A stretch of DNA of 39,341 bases from Candidatus Rokuibacteriota bacterium (GCA_016184305.1 JACPCX010000191.1:1-39341), one strand, 5' to 3'; positions 1-19,240 are shown, counted from the first letter of the stretch. Program-made: numbers and translations. Notes: generated from the sequence alone by a model not told the origin.

Positions 1-99
1 GCACCGGCGGGCTGGAGCGCCTACGCCTATAGCTCCACCGCCTCGGGAACCTTCACCATCTCGGCGAGCGGCGACAGCACCACCGTCAGCTTGCCGTAA
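1..99 (+). CDS. 3' end of a probable type IV pilin-like protein (partial)
   Basis: Frame +1 reads APAGWSAYAYSSTASGTFTISASGDSTTVSLP-stop (TAA 97-99); 13 of 32 residues are Ser/Thr, with a 'Y.Y...TFTI.A.G' beta-strand pattern like pilin C-termini. It is followed by a strong hairpin and pilus genes. The diagnostic N-terminus lies outside the window. Confidence 0.5.
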   Translation, partial: APAGWSAYAYSSTASGTFTISASGDSTTVSLP

Positions 100-124
100 G
101 GACCGCGGATCGCACGGTACGACC

Positions 125-156
125 GGTGGGGGAGGGGGCTCATCCCCTCCCCCACC
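125..156 (+). terminator. Perfect 13-bp stem-loop (terminator or mRNA-stabilising hairpin)
   Basis: GGTGGGGGAGGGG-gctcat-CCCCTCCCCCACC directly after the upstream stop; no clear U-tract. Confidence 0.7.
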
Positions 157-174
157 CGAACTTCACGGCCCTCC

Positions 175-1893
175 ATGGCCGCCGCGTGGCCGCCGCTTCT
201 GCTTCTCCTCCTGCTGGGCGCGGTGGCCTTCTCCAATGTCCCGGGCTTCGAGCTGGTCTGGGACGACCAGCATTTCCTCGTCCACAGCACGACCCTGACT
301 CACGGGTCGCCCGCCGCCCTCTTCGCCTCTGACTTCGGGCTCGACGGCTCGGGCAGCGGCTACTATCGCCCGCTCGTGACGCTCAGCTTCTTTCTGGAGC
401 ACCGCATGTTCGGCACAAGCCCGGCGGGCTACCACGTGATGAACGTCCTCTATCATCTGGGGGCGACGCTCGCCTTGGTGTGGGCCGCAGCAAGGGCCCT
501 GGGCAGCCGCGAGGCGGCCTGGCTCGCCGGCCTCGTGTTCGTGCTCCACCCGATCCACACCGAGTCCGTGGCGTTTGTCTCCGGCCGCACCGACATCCTG
601 GCAACGCTCGTCTTCCTCCTGGCCTTCGGCTGCTATACGCGCTGGGAGCGTGGGCGCCCCGCGTGGGCGCTGGCGTCGCTTTTCGGGTTCGCCGCGGCAT
701 TACTCGCCAAGGAGCCCGCCATCGTGCTCCCCGCCGTGCTCTTGGCCTGGGAGCTGACCCTCGCTCGCGTGGAACGCGGGGCACTCGCGCCAGCCCGGGT
801 CGCTGCCAGGCTTTCCCCGTTCCTCGTGCTGGCCCTCGCGTATCTCGGCGTGAGGCGGTGGGTGCTCGGATCGCTCCCGGGGCTGCCGCTGGGCCAAGAG
901 AGCCTCGCCAGTCGGATGGCGGAGGGACTCCAGTCGCTCGGCCGCTACCTGCTCCTGCTCGTCGCGCCCTACCCGGCGAACCCCGACTATGTGCTCGATC
1001 CACCCGCCGCCTGGATCTCCTGGGCCATCGCCGGGGCACTCCTGGCCGTGCTGGCCGTGGCGGTGGGGACCGCCGTCGCCTGGCGGCACTCGAGGCTCCC
1101 CGCGTTTCTGGCGCTGTGGCTGCTCCTGACCCTTCTGCCGGCCACGCCCTTCATGCCCTGGGGCCCCGCGCAGATGGCCGAGCGCTTCCTCTACCTCCCA
1201 TCCGCGGCCTTCGCGCTCTTCCTGGGATGGATCGGCCGGCGCTGGCTCCCCAGCCGTGGCGCCCTCGAGAGGCAGCTCGACGCCCGTCAGGCGCTGGCTG
1301 GTTGCGCCGCAGCCGCGCTCCTGCTGGGGGCCCTCGGCCTCACCCTGTACCGCAACGAGGACTGGCGTGACCCGGAGCGCCTCTTCGCCCGCATGGAGGC
1401 GTCCTCGCCCCGCTCGTGGAAAGCGGCGGTGAACCTGGGCCATCTCCATCAGCAGCGGGACGAGCTGCCGGCCGCCGGTGCCGCGTTCAGGAAGGCGCTG
1501 GCACTCCAGCCCGATCTGCCTTCCGCGCTCATGGGGCTCGCGGTAGTGGAGAGCCGCCTCGGCATCCACGAGGACGCGATCCGGCTCGGGCGGCGCGCGC
1601 TGGCACTGGCTCCCGGGAGCGACCTGATGGACCTGCAGCTCGGCTTCGTCTTCAGCAACGCGGGCGATCACACGGCCGCTGCCGAGCGGTTCGCGGAGGC
1701 GGCACGCAAGAACCCGCGGCGCCTCGACGCGCGCTATCACCTGGCGCTGGAGCTCGCGCGCGCCGGGCAGGAGGCCCAGGCCCGGGCGGCGCTCCGCGAG
1801 GCGGAGGCCCTCTCGCGAAGCCTCGGACTCCCTCCTTCGACCTCGGGCGCGCGCGAGCTGGCCCGCGCGACCCTCGCCCCAGCCCCCCGATGA
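175..1893 (+). CDS. TMTC-like GT-C membrane glycosyltransferase with C-terminal TPRs (putative protein O-mannosyltransferase), copy 1
   Basis: Many TM segments; motifs VWDD, YYRPL, HPIHTESVAFVSGRTD, LLAKE, AERFLYLPS and RNEDW match TMTC-family hallmarks; about four TPR repeats at the C-terminus. Confidence 0.8.
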   Translation: MAAAWPPLLLLLLLGAVAFSNVPGFELVWDDQHFLVHSTTLTHGSPAALFASDFGLDGSGSGYYRPLVTLSFFLEHRMFGTSPAGYHVMNVLYHLGATLALVWAAARALGSREAAWLAGLVFVLHPIHTESVAFVSGRTDILATLVFLLAFGCYTRWERGRPAWALASLFGFAAALLAKEPAIVLPAVLLAWELTLARVERGALAPARVAARLSPFLVLALAYLGVRRWVLGSLPGLPLGQESLASRMAEGLQSLGRYLLLLVAPYPANPDYVLDPPAAWISWAIAGALLAVLAVAVGTAVAWRHSRLPAFLALWLLLTLLPATPFMPWGPAQMAERFLYLPSAAFALFLGWIGRRWLPSRGALERQLDARQALAGCAAAALLLGALGLTLYRNEDWRDPERLFARMEASSPRSWKAAVNLGHLHQQRDELPAAGAAFRKALALQPDLPSALMGLAVVESRLGIHEDAIRLGRRALALAPGSDLMDLQLGFVFSNAGDHTAAAERFAEAARKNPRRLDARYHLALELARAGQEAQARAALREAEALSRSLGLPPSTSGARELARATLAPAPR

Positions 1894-2114
1894 GCGCTTG
1901 CGCGAAGAGGCCCCGGTAATGCGGGCGTTCCGATGAGCGCTTGCGCGAAGAGGCCCAACCGCAACGTGAGGTCCTCCACATTCAGGCGTGACGAAGAGAC
2001 CGCTTGCGCGAAGAGGCCCAACCGCAACCCGATGTCATCTACATTCAGGCGTCCTGAATGATCGCGTGCGCGAAGAGGCCCAACCGCAGCGCGACGTCTT
2101 CCACGTTCAACCGA
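1890..2114. repeat. Four-copy direct repeat with core GC(T/G)TGCGCGAAGAGGCCC(AACCGCA), unit about 62-63 bp
   Basis: Cores start at 1896, 1939, 2002 and 2064 (spacings 43, 63, 62). Copies 2-4 also share a downstream TC(C/T)AC(A/G)TTCA motif; copy 1 is truncated. Confidence 0.9.
1933..2061 (+). CDS. Possible 42-aa repeat peptide (MSACAKRPNRNVRSSTFRRDEE-TACAKRPNRNPMSSTFRRPE)
   Basis: ATG 1933 to TGA 2061, made of repeat copies 2 and 3; its stop overlaps ATG 2058 (ATGA). May not be expressed. Confidence 0.3.
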   Translation: MSACAKRPNRNVRSSTFRRDEETACAKRPNRNPMSSTFRRPE

Positions 2115-3974
2115 GATAATAAGAGATCCGCGCGCGCGGTGTGGCTCTGCGTGGCACTGGCAGCCGTCCTCGGCTACGCCGCCACGCTCACCTACGACTT
2201 CGTCTGGGACGACACGCTTCTGATCCAGCGCAGCTGGCACCTGCACCAGTGGCGGTCGCTGCCCGCGATCCTGGGCTCCCATTTCTGGGCCGAGGTCCAG
2301 GAGGCGAGCCACTACTACCGCCCGCTGGTGACGCTGAGCTTCTTCGCCGACGTGCAGCTCTGGGGGCTCACCCCGGCCGGCTTCCACCTGACCAACCTGC
2401 TGGTGCACCTGGCCACATCACTGGCCGTCCTGGCCCTGGGCCGGCGGCTCACGGGCAGCCTATGGGCTGGAGGGATCGCCGGCCTCGTCTTCGCGCTCCA
2501 CCCACTGCACACGGAGTCGGTCGCCTTCATCTCCGGGCGCAGCGACGTCCTGGCGACGCTCTTCTTCCTCTGGGCGCTCCTGGCCTATGCGGCCTGGTGG
2601 GACACGGGCCGGCGCTGGACGTATGGGTTGTCGCTGGCGTCGTTCTTCCTCGCGCTCATGGCCAAGGAGGTGGCCGCCACCCTGCCAGCCGTCTTGCTGC
2701 TCTACGACTGGGCCGCGCGCGGCGGTGTGGCGAGCCCGCGCGCGGTGGGCCGCGCAGTGCTCCGCTGCTCCGGGCACCTCGGGATCATGGCGCTCTACGC
2801 GGGCATCCGCCTCGTGGCCCTCGGCCGGATCGTGGACGCGGAGGCGAGCGCGTGGGGGAGTCTGCTCACCCGGCTCCTCACCACGCTGGACATCGTCGCC
2901 ACCTACGTCCGGCTCACCGTCATCCCGTATCCCGCCAACTCCTACCCGCTGATCGTGCCGGTGATCTTCCCCGGGAGCCCGCGCTTCTGGCTCGGCATGG
3001 CGCTGCTCGCGGTGGGGCTCGGGCTGACCGCATGGGCGGCGTGGCGCTCGCGCGTGATCGGCTTCGGCGCCCTCTGGTTCTGGGTCACCCTGATCCCCTT
3101 CGCGGGGGTGAACCTGCTGTCCCTGTCCACCGCCATCATGGCGGAGCGCTTCCTCTACCTCCCCACCGTCGGGTTCTGCCTCGTGGTGGGCATGCTCTTC
3201 TGGAAATTCCTGGGCGCGGTGGACGTGTCGGCCTCGAGTCAGCTCCGCCCGGCGCCGGCGCTGGCGCTGGCCGGGACCGTGGTGATCTACGCGCTGCTGA
3301 CACTCTGGCGCAACGAGGACTGGAAGGACAACTACCGCCTGTATTCCCGCATGGTCGAGACCTCGCCCCAGACCGCCCTGCCGCGGGTGAACCTCGCCTT
3401 CACCCAGTTCCTTCGGGGCGAGATCGTGGAGGCGGATCTCCATCTGCAGAAGGCCGTGTCCCTCATGCCCGAGAATCCCCGGGCGCGGGTCGGGCTGGGC
3501 CTCACCCGGACCTTGCTCGGCCATACGGAACAGGGACTCGAGCATGCGCTCAAGGCCCAGGCCTACGCGCCCCACAACCCCGATATTCTCGCCACGCTCG
3601 GCACGATCTATCTGTACCGGGAGGAGCCCGCCCGGGCCATCGCTCACCTCGAGGAGTCGCTCCGCCTGAACCCCCACCAGGTACACGCCTCGCTCAACCT
3701 GGCCCTGGCGCTCCACAAGCTCGGACGGCAGGCCGAGGCCGAGGCCGTCCTCACGCGTGGAGCCAAGCTGGCCGAGCTCCTGAGCCCCGGGCTTCCGCTG
3801 GTGGACCGGATCACGGCCGAGGTATATGCCGGGCGCGAGCCAGCCAGGGCGGGCGCGGCATGGGAACGGTACATCGCCCGGCTCCGCGCCATGGGCGAGC
3901 GGGCCCACACCCAGCAGGCGGACCTGGCCTATGCCGAACAGCAGCTGGCGAAGCTCCGCGGAGATGGGCAGTGA
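2058..3974 (+). CDS. TMTC-like GT-C membrane glycosyltransferase with TPRs, copy 2 (true start may be near GTG 2139)
   Basis: FVWDD, YYRPL, HPLHTESVAFISGRSD, MAKE, AERFLYLPT, RNEDW and C-terminal TPRs; paralogue of 175-1893. The first ~20 aa derive from repeat copy 4. Confidence 0.8.
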   Translation: MIACAKRPNRSATSSTFNRDNKRSARAVWLCVALAAVLGYAATLTYDFVWDDTLLIQRSWHLHQWRSLPAILGSHFWAEVQEASHYYRPLVTLSFFADVQLWGLTPAGFHLTNLLVHLATSLAVLALGRRLTGSLWAGGIAGLVFALHPLHTESVAFISGRSDVLATLFFLWALLAYAAWWDTGRRWTYGLSLASFFLALMAKEVAATLPAVLLLYDWAARGGVASPRAVGRAVLRCSGHLGIMALYAGIRLVALGRIVDAEASAWGSLLTRLLTTLDIVATYVRLTVIPYPANSYPLIVPVIFPGSPRFWLGMALLAVGLGLTAWAAWRSRVIGFGALWFWVTLIPFAGVNLLSLSTAIMAERFLYLPTVGFCLVVGMLFWKFLGAVDVSASSQLRPAPALALAGTVVIYALLTLWRNEDWKDNYRLYSRMVETSPQTALPRVNLAFTQFLRGEIVEADLHLQKAVSLMPENPRARVGLGLTRTLLGHTEQGLEHALKAQAYAPHNPDILATLGTIYLYREEPARAIAHLEESLRLNPHQVHASLNLALALHKLGRQAEAEAVLTRGAKLAELLSPGLPLVDRITAEVYAGREPARAGAAWERYIARLRAMGERAHTQQADLAYAEQQLAKLRGDGQ

Positions 3975-4741
3975 CGGCGCCGGGCGCACTTCTCCCCTCG
4001 TTCCTCGTCTTCGTCTTCGGGCTCTTCGTGGGAAGCTTCCTCAACGTCGTCATCGCGCGACTGCCGGAGCGGCGGAGCATCGTCACGCCGCGATCGGCCT
4101 GTCCGCGCTGCGAAAGGCCGATCCCCTGGTACGACAACGTGCCGCTCCTGTCCTTCGCCCTCCTCGCAGGGCGCTGCCGGTACTGCCGGGCGCCGATCTC
4201 GTGGCGCTATCCCGTCGTGGAAGCCGCCACCGGCGGCCTGTTCCTGCTCGCGCTGGCGCGGCGCGGGCTCTCGCTCGACCTCGTGAGCGCGCTCGTCCTG
4301 CTGGCGGCGCTCGTGGCCGTCACGGGCATCGACCTCGACCACCAGATCATCCCGGACGTCATCACGGTCCCCGGCATCGCGGTGGGGCTGGCATGCAGCC
4401 TTGTCACCGGGCAGCCCCGCTGGCTCGAATCCCTCATCGGTGCCGTCGTGGGAGGCGGCCTCTTCCTCCTGATCATCGTCGCCAGCGGCGGCGGCATGGG
4501 GGGAGGAGACATGAAGCTCGGCGCCATGCTCGGGGCGTTCCTGGGGTGGCGGCTGCTGCTCGTGGGGGTCATGATCTCCGTGCTGGCGGGCGGCGTCGTG
4601 GCCATCGCCCTGCTGGCGCTCAGGCGCCGGGGCAGGAAGGACGCCGTCCCGTTCGGCCCTTTCCTCGCTCTGGGCGGCGCGCTCGCGCTGCTCTGGGGCG
4701 AGAGAATCCTCCAGTGGTATCTGACGGCCTTCGTCAGATGA
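3971..4741 (+). CDS. pilD: Prepilin peptidase/N-methyltransferase (A24)
   Basis: GSFLNVVIARLP, CPRC...CRYC zinc motif, IDLDHQIIPD, GMGGGDMKL, VPFGPFLA; GTG start overlaps the upstream stop (GTGA). Confidence 0.95.
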   Translation: MTAPGALLPSFLVFVFGLFVGSFLNVVIARLPERRSIVTPRSACPRCERPIPWYDNVPLLSFALLAGRCRYCRAPISWRYPVVEAATGGLFLLALARRGLSLDLVSALVLLAALVAVTGIDLDHQIIPDVITVPGIAVGLACSLVTGQPRWLESLIGAVVGGGLFLLIIVASGGGMGGGDMKLGAMLGAFLGWRLLLVGVMISVLAGGVVAIALLALRRRGRKDAVPFGPFLALGGALALLWGERILQWYLTAFVR

Positions 4742-4943
4742 GAGCCGCTCCGAGGGCCGTCATGGGCATGACGTCACGCGTGTTCGCTTTGGGGGGTACC
4801 GCAACCCCATCAGGACTGGAGGCGGGGCACGCCCGTTCCCTGGTTGCGCTGTTTTTGCGGCCCTGGCCGCCACGCGAGGGCGCAGAGCGCGGGTTGCGCG
4901 CGGCAAACGGCAACCGCCCATGCACCAACTTCGGCCCACCCCG

Positions 4944-4960
4944 CTGGCCTCCTTCTTGCT
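4944..4960 (+). promoter_or_regulatory. sigma54 (-24/-12) promoter for the minor pilin operon
   Basis: CTGGCCTCCTTCTTGCT: GG at 4946-47 and GC at 4958-59 with exactly 10 nt between, ~50 nt upstream of ATG 5010. Confidence 0.6.
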
Positions 4961-5009
4961 AGACTTCACGGTGAGCCCGCATAGCGGCGGAAAGGCTGGT
5001 CACAGACAC

Positions 5010-5483
5010 ATGGCTCCTGTACGCGTTGAGAGACAGACGGCGCAAGCAGGGTTCAGCCTGGCCGAATTGCTGGTTGTCATCGCGGTCATCGGCATCCTCG
5101 CCGGCATGACGGTGCCGTTCTTCATCAGCTACTACCAGAGCGCGGCGCTCAAGGCCGCGGCCGAGGAGCTCGTGACCTTCCTGAACCAGGGACGCCAGAT
5201 CGCCATCAAGGAGAACCAGTCGGTGTGCGTCCAGACCACGTCCGGCGCCATCCAGATGCGCGTCAGCGGCTGCAGCGGGACGCTCTGGGTCGGGCCAGGC
5301 ACGGATGCGTCCGGGAACTGGAAGGTCCCGCAGGGCTTCACCCTCGGCAGCACGGCCACTGCGGTGTTCAGCTACCTGGGGGCGGCCTCCCCCGCGGCGA
5401 CGTACACCGTGACGAACAGCGCCAATGGCAAGACGCTCTCCGTGACCCTGTCGGCCTCGGGCCGGGTCAACGTCGGGCCCTGA
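5010..5483 (+). CDS. Minor pilin, FimT/FimU/GspH-like
   Basis: Class III signal QAG|FSLAELLVVIAVIGILAG with E5; 'GRQIAIKENQSVCV' FimT-like segment. Confidence 0.85.
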   Translation: MAPVRVERQTAQAGFSLAELLVVIAVIGILAGMTVPFFISYYQSAALKAAAEELVTFLNQGRQIAIKENQSVCVQTTSGAIQMRVSGCSGTLWVGPGTDASGNWKVPQGFTLGSTATAVFSYLGAASPAATYTVTNSANGKTLSVTLSASGRVNVGP

Positions 5484-5495
5484 GGGGACACGGCC

Positions 5496-5981
5496 ATGCG
5501 ACGGCGCGTGACGAACCAGCACGGCATGACCCTCGCGGAGGTGCTCGTCGCCATCGCGATCATCGGCGTCGGGCTCGCGGCGCTGGCCGCGGCCATCCCC
5601 ATCGCGGGCTACGGGATCCAGGAGGGGAGCCAGCTCTCGACGGCCACCTTCCTCGCCAACGCGCGGCTCGAGCAGGCGAAGAACGCGGTGTGGACCACCA
5701 CCCCAGACGTGGACAACCTCGGCGTGTCGTCCGGCAGCGCGGCCCCACAGACGGCTGGGATCACGACCTTCCCCGACGAGAATCCCATCGCGGCGCCATA
5801 CACGGCCTACACCCGCACGGTGCGCGTCACCGACTGCAGCGCTGGGGGCGGGTGCGCGGGCATCACCAATGCGAACCTCCGCCAGGTGACGGTGACCGTG
5901 ACCTACCGGCCGCTGACCGGCGTGGGGCAGAGCCCGGCCACCAAGTCGGCGGCCGTGACGATGCTGCTCGCGAAGAGGTGA
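5496..5981 (+). CDS. Minor pilin, PilV/GspI-like
   Basis: QHG|MTLAEVLVAIAIIGVG; 'ATFLANARLEQAK'; C-terminal 'LRQVTVTVTY'. Confidence 0.85.
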   Translation: MRRRVTNQHGMTLAEVLVAIAIIGVGLAALAAAIPIAGYGIQEGSQLSTATFLANARLEQAKNAVWTTTPDVDNLGVSSGSAAPQTAGITTFPDENPIAAPYTAYTRTVRVTDCSAGGGCAGITNANLRQVTVTVTYRPLTGVGQSPATKSAAVTMLLAKR

Positions 5982-5986
5982 GCGCC

Positions 5987-6520
5987 ATGCGGCGGATGCT
6001 CAGGGACCAGCGCGGCTTCACCCTCACCGAGCTGCTCGTGGTGACGGCCGTGCTCGCGATCGTGCTGGGCGCCGTGATCCTCATCCAGCAGAAGGGGCAG
6101 GAAGCCTACATCATGGGCTCGAACCGGGTCGAGACCCAGCAGAACGCCCGGGTGGCGCTGGACCTCATGACACGCGAGCTCCGCTCGGCGACGGCTATCA
6201 CCGCCATTCCCAGCGGCACCAACATGACCTTCACCGACCAGAACGGGGCCTCCGTGCAGTACCAGCTCGCCAGCGGCAACCTGACCCGGTCCACGGGGGG
6301 CATCGCGACGATCCTCATCGGGGGCGTCCAGTCGCTGGCCTTCACCTACTTCTCGGCCTACAACGGCCAGACCAATACCGGCACGAGCACCGGAACCGCC
6401 TCGGCCGTCAAGGTCATCAAGATCACTCTCGAGACCGGGACGGAGGAGGCCGCCGGCACCGGCTCCTTCGCGAGGCAGTTCGCGAAGATGGAGTCGATGG
6501 TGCGGCTGCGGAACATGTGA
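5987..6520 (+). CDS. Minor pilin, PilW/GspJ-like
   Basis: QRG|FTLTELLVVTAVL; 'QQNARVALDLMTRELRSA'; C-terminal 'VRLRN'. Confidence 0.9.
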   Translation: MRRMLRDQRGFTLTELLVVTAVLAIVLGAVILIQQKGQEAYIMGSNRVETQQNARVALDLMTRELRSATAITAIPSGTNMTFTDQNGASVQYQLASGNLTRSTGGIATILIGGVQSLAFTYFSAYNGQTNTGTSTGTASAVKVIKITLETGTEEAAGTGSFARQFAKMESMVRLRNM

Positions 6521-6534
6521 TGGGGAGGAGAGAC

Positions 6535-7758
6535 ATGGATATTCGCCGACTCGCCCGGATCCTCTGCGGCCAGCGCGGCATCGCGCTGCCGATGGCCCTC
6601 ATCGCGCTGCTGATCCTCACGGCGCTGGTGGTGGCGTTCTCGGTGCTCTCCACCTCCGAGCCCACCATCGCCGCCAACCATCTGCGCGTGGCCCAGGCCC
6701 GGGCCCTGGCCGAGGCCGGTGTGGAGCGCGCCGCCTGGGCGCTCACCAACAAGGATGCGACGGGCGGCCTCGCCGATCCGCTGCCCTCGATCGTGCCCGC
6801 GCCCTACGACGGGAGCGTGCTCGTCCCGGTCTTGGTGGGCGCCACCCAGGTCGGTGGCTTCCGCGTCACCGTGGCCGGCGGCGCCCAGAGCAACGAGCGC
6901 ACCGTCGCCGCCGTGGGCTGGGTCCCCACGGACGCGAGCAGCGACGGCCGGACCAAGGCGCACCAGCGCATCACGGCGACCTTGGCCAAGATCCGGTTCC
7001 TCGACCCGCCCTGCGCGCTCTGCGTCCGCGGCGACCTGGACGTGGGAGGGAACTCGACGGTCGACTCACGCTCGGACACGACCTGCGGGAACAAGTCGGG
7101 GACCATCACCACGGGCACCACGACCATCGGCAGCGGCGCGGCCGACGTGTGGGGGGCCGACGGCAACAACACCAGGAACCAGACGGGCACGGCGCCCCCT
7201 GCTGACATCGTGAACGGCTACAGCACGGCCAGCTTCGACAGCTATCTCTTCACCAGCAGCGACCTCGACGCGCTCAAGGCCATCGCCAAGGCCCGCGGGA
7301 CCTACTACCAGGGCGCCGTGACCTTCAACTCATCGTTCCGGATGCCCAACGGCATCATCTTCGTGGACACGACCACGGGGAACAACATCACGGACTCGAC
7401 GCCCACGTCGGAGTTCGCGGCCCTCAGCATCCACGGAGGCGCCCCGGCGGATGCCAGCGGCATCTTCAGCGGCTGGATCATCTCCAACGGCGGCATCAAC
7501 ATCAGCGGCGACTTCCGGATGCACGGCATGGTGTACGCGGTCAACGACATCTCCTATACGGGGACGGGGACGGGGGAGATCGTGGGGCAGATGATCTCGC
7601 AGAACATCCGCGACACCGTGGCCACGTCCATTGACACCAACACGGGCGGCAACGCCGCCGTCATCTACAACTGCGCCTATGCCAGGACCGGCGGCGGCCA
7701 GATCCCCCAGAGCTGGTTCGTCAAGGCGGGCACGTACAAGGAAGTCGCCGACCCGTGA
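6535..7758 (+). CDS. Large PilX/GspK-like minor pilin with extended Gly/Thr/Ser-rich C-terminal domain
   Basis: QRG|IALPMALIALLIL lacking E5; 'QARALAEAGVERA' PilX N-terminal motif; GAGGAG RBS before ATG 6535. Confidence 0.85.
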   Translation: MDIRRLARILCGQRGIALPMALIALLILTALVVAFSVLSTSEPTIAANHLRVAQARALAEAGVERAAWALTNKDATGGLADPLPSIVPAPYDGSVLVPVLVGATQVGGFRVTVAGGAQSNERTVAAVGWVPTDASSDGRTKAHQRITATLAKIRFLDPPCALCVRGDLDVGGNSTVDSRSDTTCGNKSGTITTGTTTIGSGAADVWGADGNNTRNQTGTAPPADIVNGYSTASFDSYLFTSSDLDALKAIAKARGTYYQGAVTFNSSFRMPNGIIFVDTTTGNNITDSTPTSEFAALSIHGGAPADASGIFSGWIISNGGINISGDFRMHGMVYAVNDISYTGTGTGEIVGQMISQNIRDTVATSIDTNTGGNAAVIYNCAYARTGGGQIPQSWFVKAGTYKEVADP

Positions 7759-8468
7759 GGCCCCTGGCCGCCTCGGTCCGCTCGGGGGATTGGCTGCTGC
7801 TGGGGATCCTGCTGCTGACCGCCTGCGAGGCTCCGCCGCCGCCGCGGGCCGAGCCCGATCTCGCGACCCAGGCGGCCCAGGCGCTCGACCAGGGAGAGTA
7901 CGCCAAGGCCGCGGACCTCTACCGGCGGGCGCTGGAAGCGTCGCCACAGAGCCTGCCGCTCCATTACGGCCTGGCCGTGGCGGCCTCCTACCTCGACCTG
8001 AAGGAGGAGGCGATCCGCGAGTTCAGGTGGGTGCTCGAGCGGGGTGCGCCGGGCTCAGCCGAGGTGGAGGCCGCTCGCAGATGGCTCGCCAGCGTGGGCG
8101 CCCTGCCGCGGCCGGCGGTCGCCGCGATGCCGGCTGGCGGGGAGCGCGAGCTGGGCAACGCCAGCCTCGAGGGACGGGTGGTCTTCGGCGAGGGGCAGGA
8201 CTTGCGGCCGATGGTGCGCAAGGCGCTGATCCTCGTCGGACAGCCGGGCACGCCCACCAAGGAGGAGCGCTACAACCTGCGAACCGATGAGGAGGGGCAG
8301 TACCGGTTCCCCAGCGTGGCCCCCGGCCCCTACATGCTCACCGATCGGGTCGCAGGCCCCGTGATCTGGCGGCTGCGCGTGGAACTTCAGCCCAGCCAGG
8401 AGATGACGCTGAACCTCGACCCCGCCAACAGCGTGAAGGTGCGCGACGATTTCCCCAACCTGAAGTAG
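7755..8468 (+). CDS. Lipoprotein with TPR and C-terminal carboxypeptidase-regulatory-like beta domain
   Basis: Lipobox LLTA|C; TPR pair (GEYAKAADLYRRALEASP); 'RTDEEGQYRFPSVAPGPY' motif; GTGA-coupled to the PilX-like gene. Confidence 0.7.
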   Translation: MRPLAASVRSGDWLLLGILLLTACEAPPPPRAEPDLATQAAQALDQGEYAKAADLYRRALEASPQSLPLHYGLAVAASYLDLKEEAIREFRWVLERGAPGSAEVEAARRWLASVGALPRPAVAAMPAGGERELGNASLEGRVVFGEGQDLRPMVRKALILVGQPGTPTKEERYNLRTDEEGQYRFPSVAPGPYMLTDRVAGPVIWRLRVELQPSQEMTLNLDPANSVKVRDDFPNLK

Positions 8469-8650
8469 TCTGCCCTGGGCGCATCCCCCATATGAGGCGT
8501 CGATTGTTTTTTCGCAGCGGTTTGGCGGGGCCCGTATACATTAGTCACCTGTTCGGGGCCTTTCCTCACGCTCACTTATCCGCCGGCTGAGCCGCGTGCC
8601 CCGGGGGCGGTCCCCGGGGAGCAGGCGCGGCAGCGGGCACGGAGCCGACC

Positions 8651-9712
8651 ATGGCGCTGTTCGGGCTGGGGAAGAAGCAGGCGACCTTCGGGCTGGACAT
8701 CGGATCCAGCAGCGTGAAGGTGGTCGAGCTCGCCGAGGGGCGGGGCGGGCTCACGCTCCTGTCCTTCGCCACGATCGCCTTGCCCCGCGACGTCATCGGC
8801 GAGGGCACCATCAAGGACCCGTCCGTCGTCGCCGAGGCGATCAAGGAGTGCGTCGAGAAGGCGGGGATCAAGACCAAGACCGCCGTCATCTCCGTCTCCG
8901 GGCGCGAGGCCATGACGAAGCGGGTCCCGATCCCGAAGGTGTCGCCCAAGGAGCTGGCCGACGCCATCTGGCTCGAGGCCGAGCACCACATCCCCTTCGC
9001 CGTGGACGACGTGTTCCTCGACTATCAGGTGGTGGGTGAGGCGGGGAACACCATGGACGTCATGGTCGTGGCGGTCAAGCGAGTGAAGGTGCTCGAGTAC
9101 GTAACGGCGGTCGAGGAGGCCGGGTTCGAGGTCGGGGTGGTGGATCTCGATGCCTTCGCCATCCAGAACCAGTACGAGATGAATAATCCCGGCGACAGTG
9201 GCGAGGCCGTGGCTCTCATCGACATCGGCGCCAGCTTCATGAAGACCAACGTCATCCGTGGCGGCGGCTCCATCTTCGCCCGCGACGTCCCCTTCGGCGG
9301 CCATCACTATACCGAGGCCATCGCCCAGCGGCTGAACATCCCCTTCGAGAAGGCCGAGGCCGCGAAGCAGGGGCAGGAGGTGGGCGTCAACTGGGAGGAC
9401 ATGGTCCCGGCGCTCGAGTCGGTCTCGCGGGATCTGTCGCTGGAAGTGCAGCGGATCTTCGACTACTTCGCCTCCGCCGCCGAGCACGAGCGGATCGGCA
9501 AGATCGTGCTCTCCGGGGGCTGCGCGCGGCTGGCCGGGCTCGACGAGTTCCTCTCCTCCTCGTGGGGGATCCCCGCGGAGCTGGCGCGGCCCTTCCAGGG
9601 GGTGCAGGTGGATGCGGCCCGCTTCCCCGCCCACGAGATCGACCAAATCGGGCCGGGGCTGGCGGTGGCGGTGGGACTGGGGCTCCGGCGTCCGGGGGAC
9701 AAGCCGGCATGA
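8651..9712 (+). CDS. pilM: Type IV pilus assembly protein PilM
   Basis: GLDIGSSSVKVVEL, LIDIGA, LSGGCA, C-terminal AVAVGLGLR. Confidence 0.95.
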   Translation: MALFGLGKKQATFGLDIGSSSVKVVELAEGRGGLTLLSFATIALPRDVIGEGTIKDPSVVAEAIKECVEKAGIKTKTAVISVSGREAMTKRVPIPKVSPKELADAIWLEAEHHIPFAVDDVFLDYQVVGEAGNTMDVMVVAVKRVKVLEYVTAVEEAGFEVGVVDLDAFAIQNQYEMNNPGDSGEAVALIDIGASFMKTNVIRGGGSIFARDVPFGGHHYTEAIAQRLNIPFEKAEAAKQGQEVGVNWEDMVPALESVSRDLSLEVQRIFDYFASAAEHERIGKIVLSGGCARLAGLDEFLSSSWGIPAELARPFQGVQVDAARFPAHEIDQIGPGLAVAVGLGLRRPGDKPA

Positions 9713-10257
9713 TCAAGATCAACCTGGCGCCGCCTACCGCGAAGAAGCGATTCTCGATCGGCATGCCAGGCTTCAACCTGGGGATCCTCTTCGGCATCCT
9801 GTTCGTCGTGGTGGTCGGAGCTGTCGGCCTCTGGTGGTGGACGCTCGACTCGGAGGTGCAGGGCCTGAACCGCCAGATCGCCGAGAATCAGAAGGAGATC
9901 ACCCGGCTGAAGCAGGTGATCGCCGAGGGCCAGCGCTTCAAGCGGGAGAAGGAGGAGCTCGAGCGCCGGGTCAACGCCATCGAGTCCGTGGCCCGCCTGC
10001 AGACGCGCCCCGTGTACCTGCTCGATGCCGTGGCCGACATGCTCACGAAGGACCTGTGGCTCACGCGGATGGAGGAGAAAGGGCAGCAGCTCCGCTTCGC
10101 CGGCACCACGTACTCCTCAACGGCGCTGGCCGACTTCATGGCGAACCTGAAGGCCTCCGGGAAGTTCAAGGACGTGGACCTGCTGGAGTCGCGCCAGGAC
10201 CTGACCAAGTCGCCGCGGACGATCACCTTCGAGGTGTCGTGCCGCTTCGAGATCTGA
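9709..10257 (+). CDS. pilN: PilN
   Basis: N-terminal MIKINL PilM-binding motif, TM segment, coiled coil, 'LADFMANLKASGKF'. Confidence 0.92.
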   Translation: MIKINLAPPTAKKRFSIGMPGFNLGILFGILFVVVVGAVGLWWWTLDSEVQGLNRQIAENQKEITRLKQVIAEGQRFKREKEELERRVNAIESVARLQTRPVYLLDAVADMLTKDLWLTRMEEKGQQLRFAGTTYSSTALADFMANLKASGKFKDVDLLESRQDLTKSPRTITFEVSCRFEI

Positions 10258-10260
10258 GCC

Positions 10261-10926
10261 ATGGCCTTCCTGGATCCCATCTACGCCCTGCCGACGCCCC
10301 AGAAGGTCATCCTGGGGGTGCTGCCGCTCGTGGCCGTGGGGGCGCTCGGCTGGTTCCTGCTCATCTCGCCCAAGACGGACGAGCGCGACAGCCTCTTCCA
10401 GCGAAACGAGACGCTCCGCGCCGAGGTGATGAAGGCGAGGGCCGACGAGGCCAACCTGCGGCCTTTCCGCCTCCAGGCCGAGGCGCTGCGCAAGCGGCTC
10501 GAGGCCGCCAAGGAGCGTCTCCCGGCCGAGAAGGACATCCCGAGGCTTTACCGGCAGGTCTCGGACCTGGCCATCCAGTCGGGGCTGGGCGTGGCCCTGT
10601 TCCAGCCCAGGCCGCCCGAGGAGCGCGCCGTCTTCGCCGAGGTGCCCATCACCCTGACGGCCGAGGCGGGCTACCACCAGCTCGGCGCCTTCTTCGACAG
10701 GGTGGCCCGACTGCCCCGGGTGGTGACCCTCGGCGACTTCAAGGTTTCCGGCATCGGTAAACCGACCGGGACAATCCGTGCCGAGATGACGCTCGCGACC
10801 TACGTCTTCCGGGCCGAGGGAGCGCCAGGACCCGGTAAGCCGGGGGTGCCGGCGAGGCCTGCGGCCGGAGCCGCTCCGCCTGCGCCACCCGCGCCGGCCG
10901 CGCCGCGCCCGGGAGCCCGCCCATGA
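10261..10926 (+). CDS. pilO: PilO
   Basis: TM segment, coiled coil, 'LPAEKDIPRL', 'GYHQLGAFFDRVARLPRVV'. Confidence 0.92.
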   Translation: MAFLDPIYALPTPQKVILGVLPLVAVGALGWFLLISPKTDERDSLFQRNETLRAEVMKARADEANLRPFRLQAEALRKRLEAAKERLPAEKDIPRLYRQVSDLAIQSGLGVALFQPRPPEERAVFAEVPITLTAEAGYHQLGAFFDRVARLPRVVTLGDFKVSGIGKPTGTIRAEMTLATYVFRAEGAPGPGKPGVPARPAAGAAPPAPPAPAAPRPGARP

Positions 10927-11393
10927 TCGCCCGTGGCGCGCTGCTGCTGGCGGCCCTGACGCTCGTGCTCGCGGGCTGCGGAGGCGGAGCGCCATCGACA
11001 CCGCCGGGTCCACCCGCTCCGGGGCCGGTCGTCACACCCCCGCCGCCAAAGCCGCCGGGCATGGCCGCCCTGGCCGAGGCGGGCGCGCCGCTGCCGCCCA
11101 TCCCCTACGCAACCAAGCAGCGCCGCGATCCATTCAGCCCGGTGGTGATCGTGAGCCAGGGCGGCAAGGGGCTCCAGGTAGGCTCGGTGAAGCTGGTGGG
11201 GGTCATCCAGGGACGGCAGTGGCCGCTGGCGCTGGTCGAGGCGCCGGACGGCATCGGCTACATCCTCAAGCCGGGCGACACGCTGGGCGACGGCCGCGTG
11301 ACCCAGATCACCGCGGACTCGGTGAGCTTCGCCGTTGCCGGGCCGCCGAGCCAGAAGTCGAGCAGCGTGACGCTCAGCTTGAGAACGGACTGA
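10923..11393 (+). CDS. pilP: PilP lipoprotein
   Basis: Lipobox LAG|C, Pro-rich linker, 'RRDPF', 'KLVGVI', 'ALVEAPDGIGYILKPGD'. Confidence 0.9.
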   Translation: MIARGALLLAALTLVLAGCGGGAPSTPPGPPAPGPVVTPPPPKPPGMAALAEAGAPLPPIPYATKQRRDPFSPVVIVSQGGKGLQVGSVKLVGVIQGRQWPLALVEAPDGIGYILKPGDTLGDGRVTQITADSVSFAVAGPPSQKSSSVTLSLRTD

Positions 11394-11408
11394 GAGAGGG
11401 GTGAGGTC

Positions 11409-13784
11409 ATGAAGGGTATGGCGCGCATCGCGACGTTCCTGCTGGTGATCGGGCTCCTGAGCCCGGAGATCAGCAGAGCCCAGACCGCACCCGTCCAGCT
11501 CAGGAACGTGAGCATCGACCGCGCGGCCGACGGCGTGACCGTGAAGATCAAGACCAGCGGACCGGCCCGCTACCAGGCCACGCTGATGGAGTCCCCGACC
11601 CGGCTCGTGATCGACATGGCGGACACCGTGTACGGCTGGAGCAGCCAGAGTCTCACGCCCGACATGGCCCCCATCAAGGAGATCCGCGGCAGCCAGTGGA
11701 AGCCCGGGACCTCACGCATCGTCCTCGAGCTGACCCGGAAGGTCGGCTATCGCATCGAGCAGGGCGCGGATGGGCTGTCCGTGATCCTGGACGCCTCGGC
11801 CACCGCCAGGAGCGAGAGGATGCCGGCCCCGGAGCCGGCGCGACGCCCGGAGCCAAAGCCCGACGTGAAGGCCGAGGCGAAGGTCGAGGCGCCCGCGCCT
11901 GCCCCCGCTCCCGCCCGGATCGCCCAGACCGCGGCCGCGACGACTCGGCCGATGGCGAGCGCCCAGGCTGTCCCCGCACCCATCCGCCTGGCCCAGGCCC
12001 AGCCCTCTGTCCAGGCCCCGGCCGCCAATGGCTCGCGCCTCATCTCCATGGACTTCAAGGACGCCGACGTCGTGAATCTCTTCCGCATCCTCGCCGCCGA
12101 GAGCGGCCGGAACATCGTGGTGGGCGACGACGTCAAGGGGAAGGCCTCCATCTCCCTCCGCAACGTGACCTGGGAGCAGGCCCTGGAGGTGATCCTCGAG
12201 GTGCGGGGCTTGCAGAAGATCGAGAAGGGCGGCGTCATCCGCATCGTCTCCACGGAGCAGCTCGGCAAGGAGCGGGAGGCCGTGGCCCGGTTGAACGAGG
12301 CCAAGCTCAAGGCGGAGATCGACACCCGCACCAAGCTCGCCGAGGCGCAGCTCAAGGAGGCCGATCTCGCGGCCAAGCGGCTCAACGCCCAGGCAGCGGC
12401 CGAGGAGGCCAGGGCGCGCGGCCCGTTGCGCGAGGAAACGATCCGCCTCTCCTATGCCGATCCCGAGGAGGTGGCGCGGACGCTCCAGGGCATACTCGGC
12501 ATTCCGCCCGAGGGCACGGCGCCGGTGCCGTCGCAACCGCTCGTGCCGCAGGTGCTCCCGAGCGGCGCCACGCCCGCGGCTGCCCCCGGCACAGGCGGCC
12601 AGCCCTATATCGCCGAACAACCGTTCTCGCAGATGTTCGGCCCGCAGGCCGGACAGGCAGGGCTGCGGCCAGTGGTGTCGGTGAGCCAGGACGTGCTGGC
12701 CAAGGGCATCACGATCCGCTCCCACAAGCCCACGAACACCATCTTCATCCGCCACTACGCCGCCGACCTCGAGCGGATCAAGAAGCTGATCCGCGAGCAG
12801 CTCGACGTGCCGCTGCCCCAGGTCAAGATCGAGGCGCGGATGGAGATCCTGGACCGCAATGCGCTGGAGGCCATCGGCGTGCAGTGGGGCGGCGCAGCCG
12901 CGCGCAATGTCTTCAACCGCGCCACGCTGGTCGGCCAGGGCTTCCAGTCGGCGCCGAGCGGCGTGCCGGGGCTGACCTTGCCCGTGGTCGGCGGCGTGCT
13001 CCAGCCCGACGGCTCCACCATCTCCATCAACCCCACGGCCCAGTCGGGCATCCTCCCCGTCAACCAGAACGTGACGCTGAATCGGCTGCTGCCCGTGGAG
13101 ACGACCACGGGGCTGCCCATGGGCGGCAACCTGGTGAACCTGCCCTTCTCGCTGCTGCCCAACGCCGCCAGCGCCGTACCCGCCGGCGGCATCGCCTTCG
13201 GCATCATCGGCACCAAGCTCAACATCAACCTGGCGCTGCAGGCCCTCGAGACCCAGGGCAAGACGCGGACGCTGGCGCGCCCCGAGATCGTGACCGTGGA
13301 GAACAGCAAGGCCTCCGTCACCCTCGGCGAGGAGATCCCCTACGCCACGGTGAGCAGCGCCGGCACCCAGATCCAGTTCAAGGAGGCCGTGCTCAAGCTC
13401 GAGGTCACGCCCACCGTGATCCGCGAGAAGATCGGCGGCGAGGACATCACCAAGATCAAGATGGTGGTCCTGGTCGAGAACAACTCGCGTGGCGACACCC
13501 TCAGCCCCGCCCCCGGGGTGAGCGTGCCGCTCATCAACCGAAGAAAGACCGAGACCCAGGTGCTCATGAGGGAAGGCGAGCGGCTGGTGATCGGCGGCGT
13601 GACGCAGTCCGTCCAGCAGAACACCGTCCGCAAGGTCCCGCTCTTCGGTGACATCCCGGTGCTCGGCTGGCTCTTCAAGCAGCGGGAGAACTTCGAGACT
13701 GGCCGCGAGCTGGTGGTGTTCGTGACGCCCACCATCCTCAAGACGGACGGCGCCCAGCCGGCGCAGGCCGCGCCGGGCAAGTAG
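11409..13784 (+). CDS. pilQ: Type IV pilus secretin PilQ with N-terminal AMIN domain
   Basis: AMIN-like 'PTRLVIDM', N0 '[10 protein letters not shown]', 'PQVKIEAR', secretin signature '[18 protein letters not shown]...[10 protein letters not shown]'. Confidence 0.95.
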
Positions 13785-13788
13785 GCTC

Positions 13789-14961
13789 GTGAGCGGGACG
13801 TTCCGCTTCCTCACCGCGGGGGAATCCCACGGCGAGGGGCTGACCGCTGTCATCGAGGGTGTCCCGGCCGGCCTGTCGCTGACCGAGGCCGACATCAACG
13901 AGGACCTGGCGCGGCGGCAGCGCGGCTACGGCCGCGGCGGCCGCATGAAGATCGAGCGCGACCAGGCCCACATCTCCTCGGGGTTGCGCTGGGGCGTGAC
14001 GCTGGGCAGCCCCATCACGCTATCCATCCAGAACCGCGACTGGGAGAACTGGAAGACCACCATGGCCGTCGGCGAGCCGCCGGCTGGCGCCCCCGCCAAG
14101 GCCGTGACGCGGCCGCGGCCCGGGCACGCCGATCTGGCCGGCGCCATGAAGTACGGCCACCGCGACATCCGCAATGTGCTGGAGCGCTCCAGTGCCCGGG
14201 AGACCACCGCGCGCGTGGCCGTGGCCGGAGTCGCCAAGCGGTTCCTGGCGGAATTCGGCATCTCGATCCTGAGCCACGTCATCGAGATCGGAGGGTTGCG
14301 CATCGTCCCCCTCGAGCTGCCCTGGGAGGAGATCAGGCGCCGCGCCGAGGCCTCGGAGGTTCGCTGCGCCGACCCCACCGCCGAGCGGGCCATGATCGAG
14401 GCCATCGACCAGGCCAGGGCCACGGGGGACACGCTGGGAGGCGTCTTCGAGGTGGTGGCCCTGGGCTGCCCCGTGGGTCTCGGCTCCTATGTGCACTGGG
14501 ATCGCAAGCTCGACGGACGGCTCGCCCAGGCGTTCTGCTCCATCCACGCGATCAAGGGCGCCGAGTTCGGCATGGGCTTCGAGGCCGCCCGCCGCCCCGG
14601 CTCCCAGGTCCACGACGAGATCCTCTTCGACAGGGACGCGGGCTTCAGCCGGCGCACCAACAGCGCCGGTGGGCTCGAGGGCGGCGTGACCAACGGCCAG
14701 CCCGTGATCGTGCGCGCCGTCATGAAGCCCATCGCGACGCTCCGGCGCCCGCTCCAGTCCGTGGACGTCGAGACGAAGGTAGTGGTGGAGGCCGTGGTGG
14801 AGCGGAGCGATGTCTGCGCGGTGCCCGCTGCGGGAGTGGTGGGCGAGGCCATGATGGCCATCACGCTCGCCCAGGCCGTCCTCGAGAAGTTCGGCGGCGA
14901 CAGCCTCGAGGAGATCCGCCGGAACTACCAGGGCTACCAGGACTCCCTCAAGCGCTGGTAA
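13789..14961 (+). CDS. aroC: Chorismate synthase
   Basis: [45 protein letters not shown]. Confidence 0.97.
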
Positions 14962-15012
14962 CCCCGCCCCGGTTGCGGCGGCACCCCAGTACATTACATT
15001 CAAGCGAGCAAG

Positions 15013-16095: not shown

Positions 16096-16101
16096 GCTCG
16101 A

Positions 16102-16130
16102 TTGACTGGACGCGGCGACCCACGTATAAC
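16102..16130 (+). promoter_or_regulatory. sigma70-type promoter
   Basis: TTGACT-17 nt-TATAAC, with 9 nt between the -10 element and ATG 16140. Confidence 0.65.
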
Positions 16131-16139
16131 GAAATCGCC

Positions 16140-16802
16140 ATGGTTCAGCCGGTGCCTCGGGTCGGCGGGGACGTCGCGGCCCAGGAAGCCGCCCAGAGCG
16201 CCATCCGCCGCTACGAGGAGCGGCTCGCGAAGGATCCCGCGTCGGTCGCCTTCGCCCCCCTGGCGGATGCGTATCGCAAGGCGGGCCGGAGCCGCGAGGC
16301 GATCAGGCTGTGCCGCGAGGGACTCGATCGCGTCCCTCACTACACGACGGCGCGACTCGTGCTCGCCAAGGCGCTCCTGGACGAGGGCGACCCGGATGGG
16401 GCCGCGGCCGAGCTTCGGGCGCTCGTGGCGAGCGGAGCGAAGGACCCGGAGGCACACCGGCTCCTGGCGCAGCTCGATCGACTTGCCGGCCGGCTCGATG
16501 ACGCGATGACCCACCTCGAGCAGGCGGCGAAGCTGGACCCGGGGGACCGCGAGTCGCGCGTCACGCTGGAGCTCCTGAAGGGCGACGGCCGCCTCCCGGA
16601 CGGCTCGCCGCTCGCCGGGCTCCTGGCCGACGACACGTTCGCCACGCTCTCGTTCGGGGCGGCCTGCCTCGGGCAGGGGCTCTGCGAGGACGCCGCGCAG
16701 ATCTTCCTGCGGCTGCTCAAGAGGAATCCGGGAGACGCCCGGGCCCGCTCGCTGCTCGAGCAGGCGGTTCGGACCAGGACCCAAAAACGGAAGGGACCAT
16801 AA
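16140..16802 (+). CDS. TPR protein
   Basis: 'DPASVAFAPLADAYRKAG...AIRLCREGL' TPR pattern; family typically found after aroB. Confidence 0.85.
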   Translation: MVQPVPRVGGDVAAQEAAQSAIRRYEERLAKDPASVAFAPLADAYRKAGRSREAIRLCREGLDRVPHYTTARLVLAKALLDEGDPDGAAAELRALVASGAKDPEAHRLLAQLDRLAGRLDDAMTHLEQAAKLDPGDRESRVTLELLKGDGRLPDGSPLAGLLADDTFATLSFGAACLGQGLCEDAAQIFLRLLKRNPGDARARSLLEQAVRTRTQKRKGP

Positions 16803-16806
16803 CGCG

Positions 16807-17376: not shown

Positions 17377-17380
17377 CGGC

Positions 17381-17869
<489 letters not shown>

Positions 17870-17899
17870 GACCGGACGACCTGGTCCCCTCCCGCACCC

Positions 17900-19234
<1,335 letters not shown>

Positions 19235-19240
19235 CCGGCC

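Follow-up and report, generated by a model that had tools for sequence, protein, structure and literature searches.

The 39,341-nt stretch of Candidatus Rokuibacteriota DNA analysed here (the window), whose first base is also base 1 of contig C239, carries two tandem genes, GTC1 and GTC2, inside a type IV pilus gene cluster. On balance, they probably encode two TfpW-like, TMTC-related enzymes, each with a GT-C membrane glycosyltransferase domain and a tetratricopeptide repeat (TPR) domain, which would O-glycosylate the major pilin, and perhaps the minor pilins, in the periplasm. This reading rests on data presented here: the fold, the conservation of motifs, and the gene order and its conservation. 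Both this architecture and this placement of the gene have a precedent in TfpW of Pseudomonas, as far as the available parts of its description go. What the locus contributes to the bacterial TMTC-like family is a wider occurrence and perhaps a substrate, and its tandem pair is a difference from TfpW.

Two GT-C/TPR genes between pilA and pilD

The genes are arranged in the order pilA, 75 nt, GTC1, 164 nt, GTC2, pilD, minor pilins and pilMNOPQ (Table 1), and every gene in the first ~14 kb lies on the + strand. GTC1 and GTC2 are co-directional open reading frames (ORFs) with 36% identity over 567 columns (BLASTP, E 1e-78), which marks them as paralogs. A preliminary description of this locus had proposed two paralogous GT-C/TPR genes with a common set of motifs, and all of these motifs are found in both. 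It had also placed a pilin-like gene upstream. Only 32 codons of this gene are in the window, and the residues they encode correspond to the C-terminal ends of full 135-aa-class PilA-like pilins in three relatives (L008, L015, and L017), where these pilins are encoded directly upstream of GTC1 orthologs. The L015 pilin matches N_methyl (1.3e-10) and also T2SSG in Pfam. The described translational coupling of GTC2 and pilD is seen as well: the GTC2 stop codon and the GTG start codon of pilD share the sequence GTGA at 3971-3974, and pilD is confirmed by Peptidase_A24. Of the four minor pilins described downstream, three have N_methyl matches above cutoff and the fourth has a PilX_N match just under it (Pfam).

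In both proteins the WDD motif is found immediately after the first transmembrane helix (TM1), at residues 29-31 of GTC1 and 50-52 of GTC2. It is followed by YYRPL (GTC1 63-67, GTC2 86-90), HP(I/L)HTESVAF(V/I)SGR(T/S)D (125-140 and 148-163), KE (179-180 and 203-204), AERFLYLP (335-342 and 362-369), and RNEDW (393-397 and 418-422). The key residues of these motifs are invariant in relatives (alignments of 45 and 31 sequences). In GTC2 the positions invariant among 45 relatives include D51, D52, R88, H151, E153, R161, D163, K203, E204, and E363-P369, and D30 and D31 of GTC1 are invariant in the relatives' alignment. Such invariance of catalytic-type residues in 45 sequences argues for an active enzyme.

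Full-length GTC1 and GTC2 match only TPR repeats in Pfam and NCBIfam; in GTC1 these are at residues 416-482. In a short N-terminal fragment of GTC1, residues 101-200 in the TM3-TM5 region reach 24.1 bits with PMT_2 (cutoff 26.1) and 21.3 bits with PMT (cutoff 22.7), and GTC2 reaches 17.3 bits with PMT_2, also under the cutoff. In Pfam neither family is matched above its curated cutoff in GTC1 or GTC2, and the full-length proteins do not match them.

The AlphaFold2 (AF2) model of GTC2, built from the alignment of 45 sequences (pLDDT 88.4, pTM 0.88), has 11 long helices, after which a TPR solenoid begins at about residue 425. It was compared with 48,161 representative chains by VIA-align. The membrane domain (residues ~15-450) matches STT3 with a Z-score of 21.2 over 331 residues and a root-mean-square deviation of 4.2. 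Further matches are AglB (Z 21.1), Pmt1-Pmt2 (20.9), Pmt4 (20.4), ArnT (19.0), PglB (17.4), and AftA (15.6). For the predicted structure, these near-tied scores single out no particular family; what they show is a GT-C fold of the kind found in enzymes that take polyprenyl-phosphate-linked sugars. The TPR domain matches PilW (2vq2, Z 17.9) and PilF (2fi7, Z 17.7), with other TPR proteins about equal. Because the N-terminus is rich in Lys and Arg and the number of helices is odd, the WDD loop and the TPR domain would face the periplasm.

Relation to the TMTC family

According to the available part of PMC7801869, loop 1 of TMTCs holds DD and SHKSYRP, TM3 closes with HPIHT, loops 2 and 3 contribute an Asp/Lys pair, loop 5 carries AER(V), and a DUF1736 loop connects TM7 to TM8. 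There, DD, the Arg of AER and the Asp/Lys pair are assigned to catalysis and phosphate binding in TMTCs and in solved GT-C structures. GTC2 carries WDD, SHYYRP, HPLHTESV, GRSD...KE, and AERFLYLP, and GTC1 carries the same set except for SGYYRP, the placement of the motifs in loops being taken from the helix order of the model and not from a superposition. The counterparts of the residues assigned in that source are invariant in 45 relatives.

The Pfam family TMTC_DUF1736 has no match in GTC1 or GTC2 at E up to 10, nor in the six frames of the whole genome, and PF08409 is present in none of the 120 relatives listed. The family does work in this phylum, with matches over cutoff in 15 of 201 sampled genomes; they are found at 14/18 in one other family and at 2/125 in the family to which the window belongs. 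Nearly the full length of GTC1 and GTC2 can be aligned, at 29-33% identity, with DUF1736-positive proteins of the same phylum, which are bacterial proteins and not animal TMTCs. GTC2 aligns with such an ORF of L089 (31%, 587 columns, E 1.3e-54) and GTC1 with one of L088 (33%, 530 columns, E 5.7e-46). In these alignments the DUF1736 segment falls on GTC residues ~255-300, a diverged Y-x6-P-Y-P-A-N stretch, and the GTC2 loop is without the Asp of the ADY(S)YN stretch. A DUF1736 cluster in the Atlas (rank 21, score 0.92) is taken as a lead only.

Neither Foldseek nor VIA-align lists a TMTC chain. For the full GTC2 model, the matches given by Foldseek are all TPR proteins, and it is by VIA-align that the GT-C fold becomes visible. 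Sequence searches of the PDB with GTC1 and GTC2 gave TPR matches only, and no TMTC chain, among the best 60 of 90. Judged by sequence, GTC1 and GTC2 belong to the same superfamily as the bacterial DUF1736 proteins and have the TMTC motif set, and they fail the Pfam test that defines TMTC; the likeness is real at the level of motifs and superfamily. The TMTC type assigned in the preliminary description is thus upheld by the motifs and by the homology to bacterial DUF1736-positive proteins, and not by TMTC_DUF1736. The structural comparison likewise bears out the GT-C fold (STT3, PMT, and ArnT), with no TMTC chain in the list of either fold search.

Conservation of the pilin linkage

We surveyed 79 related loci in species-representative genomes. 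At 73 of them at least 700 nt are available upstream of the GT-C gene, which makes these loci testable. To be scored as linked, a locus had to have an ORF with a prepilin motif on the same strand, beginning no more than 1.5 kb upstream. A pilin is found upstream of the GT-C/TPR gene at 16 of the 73 testable loci, and at 17/79 when L042, which has less flank, is included. These loci come from at least five phyla: Rokubacteria/Methylomirabilota, Omnitrophota (seven loci), UBP14, Nitrospinota, and Acidobacteriota; further ones are L017 (labelled Verrucomicrobiia) and L023 (an unclassified bacterium). The Acidobacteriota locus has three tandem pilins and then three GT-C genes. The gap from the pilin stop codon to the GT-C match is mostly 77-310 nt. 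The order pilin-GTC-pilD is kept in L023 and L043 at only ~30% protein identity, and the linkage that the preliminary description had relied on is indeed conserved in relatives. In nine Rokubacteria-type loci having pilus genes, as well as in L023 and L043, pilD follows directly after the GTC2 ortholog. In the phylum sample, 10 of the 201 genomes have a GTC1 ortholog. With pilA-GTC2-pilD as the commoner order, GTC2 would seem to be the core enzyme and GTC1 an addition restricted to certain lineages.

Six further loci, at 57-58% identity, have neither pilin nor pilD. At one of these (L011, 3237-7674) a 692-aa PilB-type ATPase with MshEN, a small Ras-like GTPase and two Roadblock/LC7 proteins are encoded immediately upstream of the GTC2-like gene, and a TPR protein belongs to the same set of neighbours. 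We take this gene set to be reminiscent of MglA/MglB polarity control of pilus motility. Separately, orthologs with 53-58% identity and the same gene order are found in L010, L013, L017, and L018, which are labelled Dormiibacterota, Deferrimicrobiaceae, Verrucomicrobiia, and even Nitrosocosmicus (an archaeon). These contigs are probably mis-binned Rokubacteria.

Paralogs elsewhere in the genome

The source genome (3.2 Mb, 88.8% complete, 2425 called genes) contains eight GT-C/TPR paralogs at five loci, three of which have tandem pairs. On C175 a GTC pair is accompanied by minor pilins, pilM, pilQ, and pilC within ~20 kb, and on C154 a GTC gene stands between a PilT/PilB-family ATPase gene, which precedes it, and a GGDEF gene. 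Four of the five loci lie within 10 kb of a pilus marker, when 5.4% of the genome is that close (rough binomial P ~4e-5), which speaks for the proposed role in pilin glycosylation.

A second pilin-linked glycosylation island is seen on C218 at 5039-20588 (loci L001 and L094). It starts with a YfhO-like membrane protein, a PilA-like pilin with a Ser/Thr/Pro-rich tail, two GT-C/TPR paralogs, and a PMT_2 GT-C. The rest comprises two proteins without annotation, one of them a membrane protein of 768 aa, a Dpm1/AglJ-like protein of glycosyltransferase family 2 (GT2), and sugar-nucleotide genes for an epimerase/dehydratase, a radical SAM protein, and a sugar kinase.

Candidate sugar donors

The genome has 12 GT2 matches, GT2 being the family in which the preliminary description had suggested searching for a polyprenol-phosphate-mannose synthase. 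Two are Dpm1-like. The one in the C218 island has dolichyl-phosphate hexose transferases as its best NCBIfam match, under cutoff. The other, on C10, shares its operon with genes for a PMT-type GT-C, a methyltransferase, and a DUF2079 membrane protein, and is 52% identical to the GT2 directly after the pilin-linked GT-C in four Omnitrophota loci. No GtrA-type flippase was found in the 88.8%-complete genome.

An operon for DPPR synthase (DPPRS), DprE1, and DprE2 is present on C175 at 37144-40096 (locus L093, 5145-8100), preceded by genes for an ArnB/PseC-like aminotransferase and LptD. DPPR synthase scores 273.9 bits with NF008977, over the cutoff; DprE1 (392 bits) and DprE2 (168 bits) are both under theirs. 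The order LptD-(aminotransferase)-DPPRS-DprE1-DprE2 is kept in 9/10 relatives, LptD being a neighbour at 9 of 10 loci and the ArnB-like aminotransferase at 7 of 10. This arrangement suggests a mycobacterial-type pathway for an arabinose (or amino-pentose) donor tied to the outer membrane of some Rokubacteria. At all 10 loci the ~8 kb around the operon are free of GT-C/TPR genes and of the other GT-C genes tested, and conversely none of the 79 related loci has a DPPRS or DprE1 gene within 8 kb of the GT-C gene. DprE1-like genes occur in 35 of 201 genomes of the phylum sample, 29 of which are without a GTC1 ortholog. Among the 10 genomes with a GTC1 ortholog, six have a DprE1-like match and four do not. 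D-arabinofuranose (D-Araf) is not claimed as the donor, given no GT-C linkage and no clean co-occurrence of DprE1 with GTC1.

Neither the Dpm1-like GT2 genes nor the DPPRS-DprE1-DprE2 operon is tied to GTC1/GTC2. The Omnitrophota cassette slightly favours a polyprenyl-phosphate hexose as donor. That the sugar is mannose and that the minor pilins are substrates, as the preliminary description put forward, is supported by no result here.

Proposed role and alternative explanations

The mechanism set out next is inferred, and so are the topology, the catalytic activity, the identity of acceptor and sugar, and the way in which the two paralogs might share the work. GTC1 and GTC2 would sit in the inner membrane with a cytoplasmic, K/R-rich N-terminus, 11 TM helices, a periplasmic Asp-Asp loop after TM1 and a periplasmic TPR domain. 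A polyprenyl-phosphate-linked sugar would be made on the cytoplasmic face and then flipped to the periplasm. An N-terminal helix would anchor each prepilin in the inner membrane and leave its globular part exposed to the periplasm. The TPR domain would grip the pilin, and the GT-C domain would move the sugar onto Ser/Thr hydroxyls before the PilD-processed subunits are polymerised by PilBCMNOPQ. The likely substrate would be the PilA encoded 75 nt upstream of GTC1, and possibly the minor pilins too. The same scheme has been established for Pseudomonas TfpW, according to the available part of the preprint (bioRxiv 10.1101/2020.04.19.049825).

Several observations weigh against this assignment. 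No donor-synthesis gene is present in the window. No adjacent pilin was found at 57 of the 73 testable loci, a count that is an upper bound on absence, since the prepilin-motif regular expression was strict and missed three of the four minor pilins in the window. At 55 of the 79 loci there is no pilus marker at all, and in the source genome the GTC locus on C71 is without a pilus gene within 10 kb; the family is therefore wider than pilin work. The binomial test of pilus linkage among the paralog loci is rough, and its pilus markers were partly picked after the loci had been seen. The minor pilins are rich in Ser and Thr, as described earlier, with 18-20% against a proteome mean of 9.8% (at least the 98.8th percentile of the 2425 called genes), but such richness is usual for pilins and proves nothing about glycosylation. 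Finally, the likeness to TfpW, in the available parts of its source, is one of design, drawn from a description of TfpW and not from its sequence.

GTC1 and GTC2 might instead be general periplasmic protein O-glycosyltransferases, like the actinobacterial Pmt or broad PglL enzymes, with pilins as some of many substrates and a position that reflects co-expression. The loci without a pilus marker would fit such a role, as would the eight paralogs in the genome and the size of the family, which has 502 relatives among 561 pattern matches in species-representative genomes; public pipelines label relatives 'protein O-mannosyl-transferase' or 'glycosyltransferase family 39'. The immediate adjacency of pilin and GTC genes across phyla at ~30% identity, together with pilD or pilM, and the pilus linkage of four of the five loci in the genome speak against it, and we consider it unlikely.

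Still less probable in our view is a non-protein acceptor needed by the pilus, such as lipid A or the lipopolysaccharide core (as for ArnT), an exopolysaccharide, or peptidoglycan-linked polymers. ArnT ranks high in the fold comparison, and it is the closest template reported for TMTC and TfpW in the available parts of PMC7801869 and bioRxiv 10.1101/2020.04.19.049825. The LptD and ArnB-like neighbours of the DPPRS-DprE1-DprE2 operon also point to envelope glycolipid work. However, no tested GT-C gene stands near that operon, the conserved neighbour of the GT-C gene is the pilin gene itself, and a periplasmic TPR domain is a protein-binding module that is found in TfpW and TMTC but not in ArnT. 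A TPR scaffold or pilotin-like pilus assembly factor, in which the GT-C domain would be a mere membrane anchor without catalytic relevance, is suggested by the PilW and PilF fold matches and by the label 'Tfp pilus assembly protein PilF' that the Joint Genome Institute (JGI) gives to many relatives, but it is highly improbable given the invariant catalytic-type residues of the membrane domain in 45 sequences, the generic nature of the TPR matches and the separate TPR lipoprotein gene at 7755-8468.

Pilin O-glycosylation by GTC1 and GTC2 can be extended to a bolder and rather doubtful proposal. The bacterial TMTC-like GT-C/TPR family would be at root a type IV pilus glycosylation family, in which each pilus set has its own enzyme or pair (in this genome at four of the five loci, three of them with tandem pairs), paralogs divide the work (first sugar against extension, or major against minor pilins), the donor is a polyprenyl-phosphate hexose and not D-Araf, and the animal TMTCs are an offshoot. 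If so, bacterial TMTC homologues would have a defined substrate class, and a tractable model would be at hand for how TPR domains choose Ser/Thr sites on beta-strands.

The TfpW-type design appears to be conserved beside pilin genes in Rokubacteria, Omnitrophota, Acidobacteriota, Nitrospinota, and other uncultured lineages. If this conservation is true, pilin O-glycosylation by GT-C/TPR enzymes would be widespread in environmental bacteria, and the bacterial relatives of the animal TMTC O-mannosyltransferases would have a natural substrate. Pilin glycosylation alters the surface chemistry of the pilus. In Pseudomonas it guards against pilus-specific phages, according to the available parts of bioRxiv 10.1101/150227 and PMC11841053.

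Locus layout and the contig

The coordinates of the features are listed in Table 1. The G+C content is 70% across the window. The product encoded at 7755-8468 has a lipoprotein-type N-terminus, with the lipobox LLTAC read from the translation; it is a possible pilotin.

Table 1. Features of the pilus cluster in the window, with the evidence for each
Feature	Position	Strand	Evidence
pilA 3' end, 32 codons + stop, truncated at contig start	1-99	+	frame-1 translation, TAA at 97-99
GTC1, GT-C membrane glycosyltransferase (predicted) with C-terminal TPR domain, 572 aa	175-1893	+	paralog of GTC2; TPR Pfam matches
Four tandem copies of a 55-nt core, spacing 43, 63, 62 nt	1892-2114	+	repeat search
GTC2, GT-C membrane glycosyltransferase (predicted) with C-terminal TPR domain, 638 aa	2058-3974	+	AF2 model, fold matches
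pilD prepilin peptidase	3971-4741	+	A24_N_bact 1.2e-34, Peptidase_A24 1.2e-19
Minor pilin, GspH/FimT-like	4920-5483	+	N_methyl 3.6e-07, GspH 9.1e-06; Ser + Thr 18.7%
Minor pilin, PilV-like	5496-5981	+	N_methyl 9.3e-08; NCBIfam PilV and GspI weak, below cutoff
Minor pilin, PilW-like	5978-6520	+	N_methyl 2e-08; Ser + Thr 20.0%
Large minor pilin, PilX-like	6517-7758	+	PilX_N 2.8e-05, 24.5 bits (cutoff 25.5)
TPR + CarboxypepD_reg-like protein	7755-8468	+	TPR_19 26.2 bits (cutoff 25); CarboxypepD_reg 27.7 bits (below cutoff 32.3)
pilM	8651-9712	+	PilM_2 1.9e-74
pilN	9709-10257	+	PilN 5.9e-15
pilO	10261-10926	+	PilO 1.8e-31
pilP	10923-11393	+	PilP 5.4e-07
pilQ	11409-13784	+	Secretin 7.5e-41 and AMIN

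Contig C120 of the same genome ends with pilT-pilC-pilS-pilR, encoding among others a PilS-like kinase and a sigma-54 PilR-like regulator, and then a pilin N-terminus. Because this is the order found upstream of pilA in L015, C120 very probably adjoins C239 in the genome. The two contigs together would therefore form one complete type IVa pilus cluster with the two GT-C genes inside. At the end of C120 (75862-76712, locus L102) a pilin N-terminus runs into unrelated sequence and is followed by a second pilin N-terminus at the contig end. The split pilA region might reflect a tandem pair of pilin genes, a pseudogene of a pilin, or a variable pilin locus that collapsed during assembly. The assembly of the relative L006 breaks at the same place in pilA. 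An orphan PilA paralog that is very like the pilin family of the cluster is found on contig C25 (22182-22601), with no GT-C gene adjoining.

The junction between GTC1 and GTC2 is occupied by four copies of a 62-63-nt unit (repeat family D1), which extend across the GTC1 stop codon, the spacer and the GTC2 start. Each copy has an ATG-led stretch resembling the GTC2 N-terminus, and the first 19 codons of GTC2 fall in the fourth copy. Short ORFs from the repeat copies overlap both the stop of GTC1 and the start of GTC2, in each case as ATGA. A 14-nt core of the repeat occurs 16 times genome-wide, clustered, on nine contigs. The relative L006 (95% identical) has this core at its own GTC1-GTC2 junction too, and its assembly shows a run of N there. 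The repeat looks like a dispersed small tandem-repeat element that provides the start codon of GTC2.

Comparison with known systems

The animal TMTC1-4 proteins, which are cadherin O-mannosyltransferases, resemble GTC1 and GTC2 in having an 11-TM GT-C domain and a C-terminal TPR domain. DD, the SH(K)SYRP-like motif, HPxHT, the Asp/Lys pair, and AER(V), as given in the available part of PMC7801869, all have counterparts. In contrast to the animal TMTCs, the TM7-TM8 loop of the GTC proteins is diverged and without a Pfam DUF1736 match, and the acceptor would be a pilin and not a cadherin. A search of the TMTC literature for prokaryotic GT-C proteins and bacterial pilins found no paper describing the function of the GTC1/GTC2 clade.

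Members of the PMT family (GT39; yeast Pmt1-Pmt2 and Pmt4, and the actinobacterial Pmt) share the GT-C fold with the GTC proteins (Z 20.4-20.9), which also have sub-threshold Pfam matches to PMT and PMT_2. Their O-glycosylation of Ser/Thr from a polyprenyl-phosphate sugar is the chemistry proposed for GTC1 and GTC2. The GTC proteins differ from the PMT family in Pfam scores that stay under the cutoffs, in the presence of a TPR tail, and in having no MIR-domain family in the Pfam scans.

PglL and TfpO are of the Wzy_C/O-antigen-ligase-type family. Like the role proposed for GTC1 and GTC2, theirs is that of pilin-modifying membrane enzymes, and tfpO (PilO) is also right after pilA, as described in the available part of bioRxiv 10.1101/2020.04.19.049825. 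PglL/TfpO transfer preassembled undecaprenyl-pyrophosphate glycans. The membrane parts of GTC1 and GTC2 have no Wzy_C or O-antigen-ligase-type domain among their Pfam matches at E up to 10.

The closest known system is TfpW, and the TfpW preprint was the sole work that turned up in a literature search for pilin glycosylation by a GT-C protein with tetratricopeptide repeats. The Rokubacteria pili literature, in its titles and abstracts, gave no pilin glycosylation. In the available part of the preprint (bioRxiv 10.1101/2020.04.19.049825), TfpW from P. aeruginosa group IV / P. paraeruginosa (Pa5196, PA7) is described as a pilin D-arabinofuranosyltransferase of 646 aa. Its N-terminus is cytoplasmic and 11 TM helices are predicted; a large TPR domain lies in the periplasm, the first periplasmic loop contains a DDx motif that is essential, and ArnT is the best structural template. 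The tfpW gene lies immediately downstream of pilA, and homologs adjoin pilA in several proteobacteria. Loss of TfpW abolishes the O-linked D-arabinofuranosylation of pilin Ser/Thr, and DPPR synthase, DprE1, and DprE2 are the minimal set for pilin arabinosylation in a PAO1 background (same source). The sugar-donor genes are unlinked from pilA-tfpW, as stated in the available part of PMC12369383.

GTC2 is similar to TfpW, as so described, in length (638 against 646 aa), in its 11 helices and TPR domain, and in the WDD/DDx loop motif. A Y-x6-P-[Y]-P...P stretch in loop 4 resembles the Y-x6-PF-x7-P reported for TfpW. The GTC pair also takes the position of tfpW directly after pilA, with the pilA stop codon at 97-99 and the GTC1 start at 175. 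The preliminary description had set the proposed system apart from characterised pilin glycosylation and had filed TfpW under other enzymes. This contrast falls, at least against the available account of TfpW, which has the same architecture and the same position. Unlike TfpW, which is from Pseudomonas, GTC1 and GTC2 are found in an uncultured Rokubacterium, as two tandem paralogs between pilA and pilD inside a full pilus cluster.

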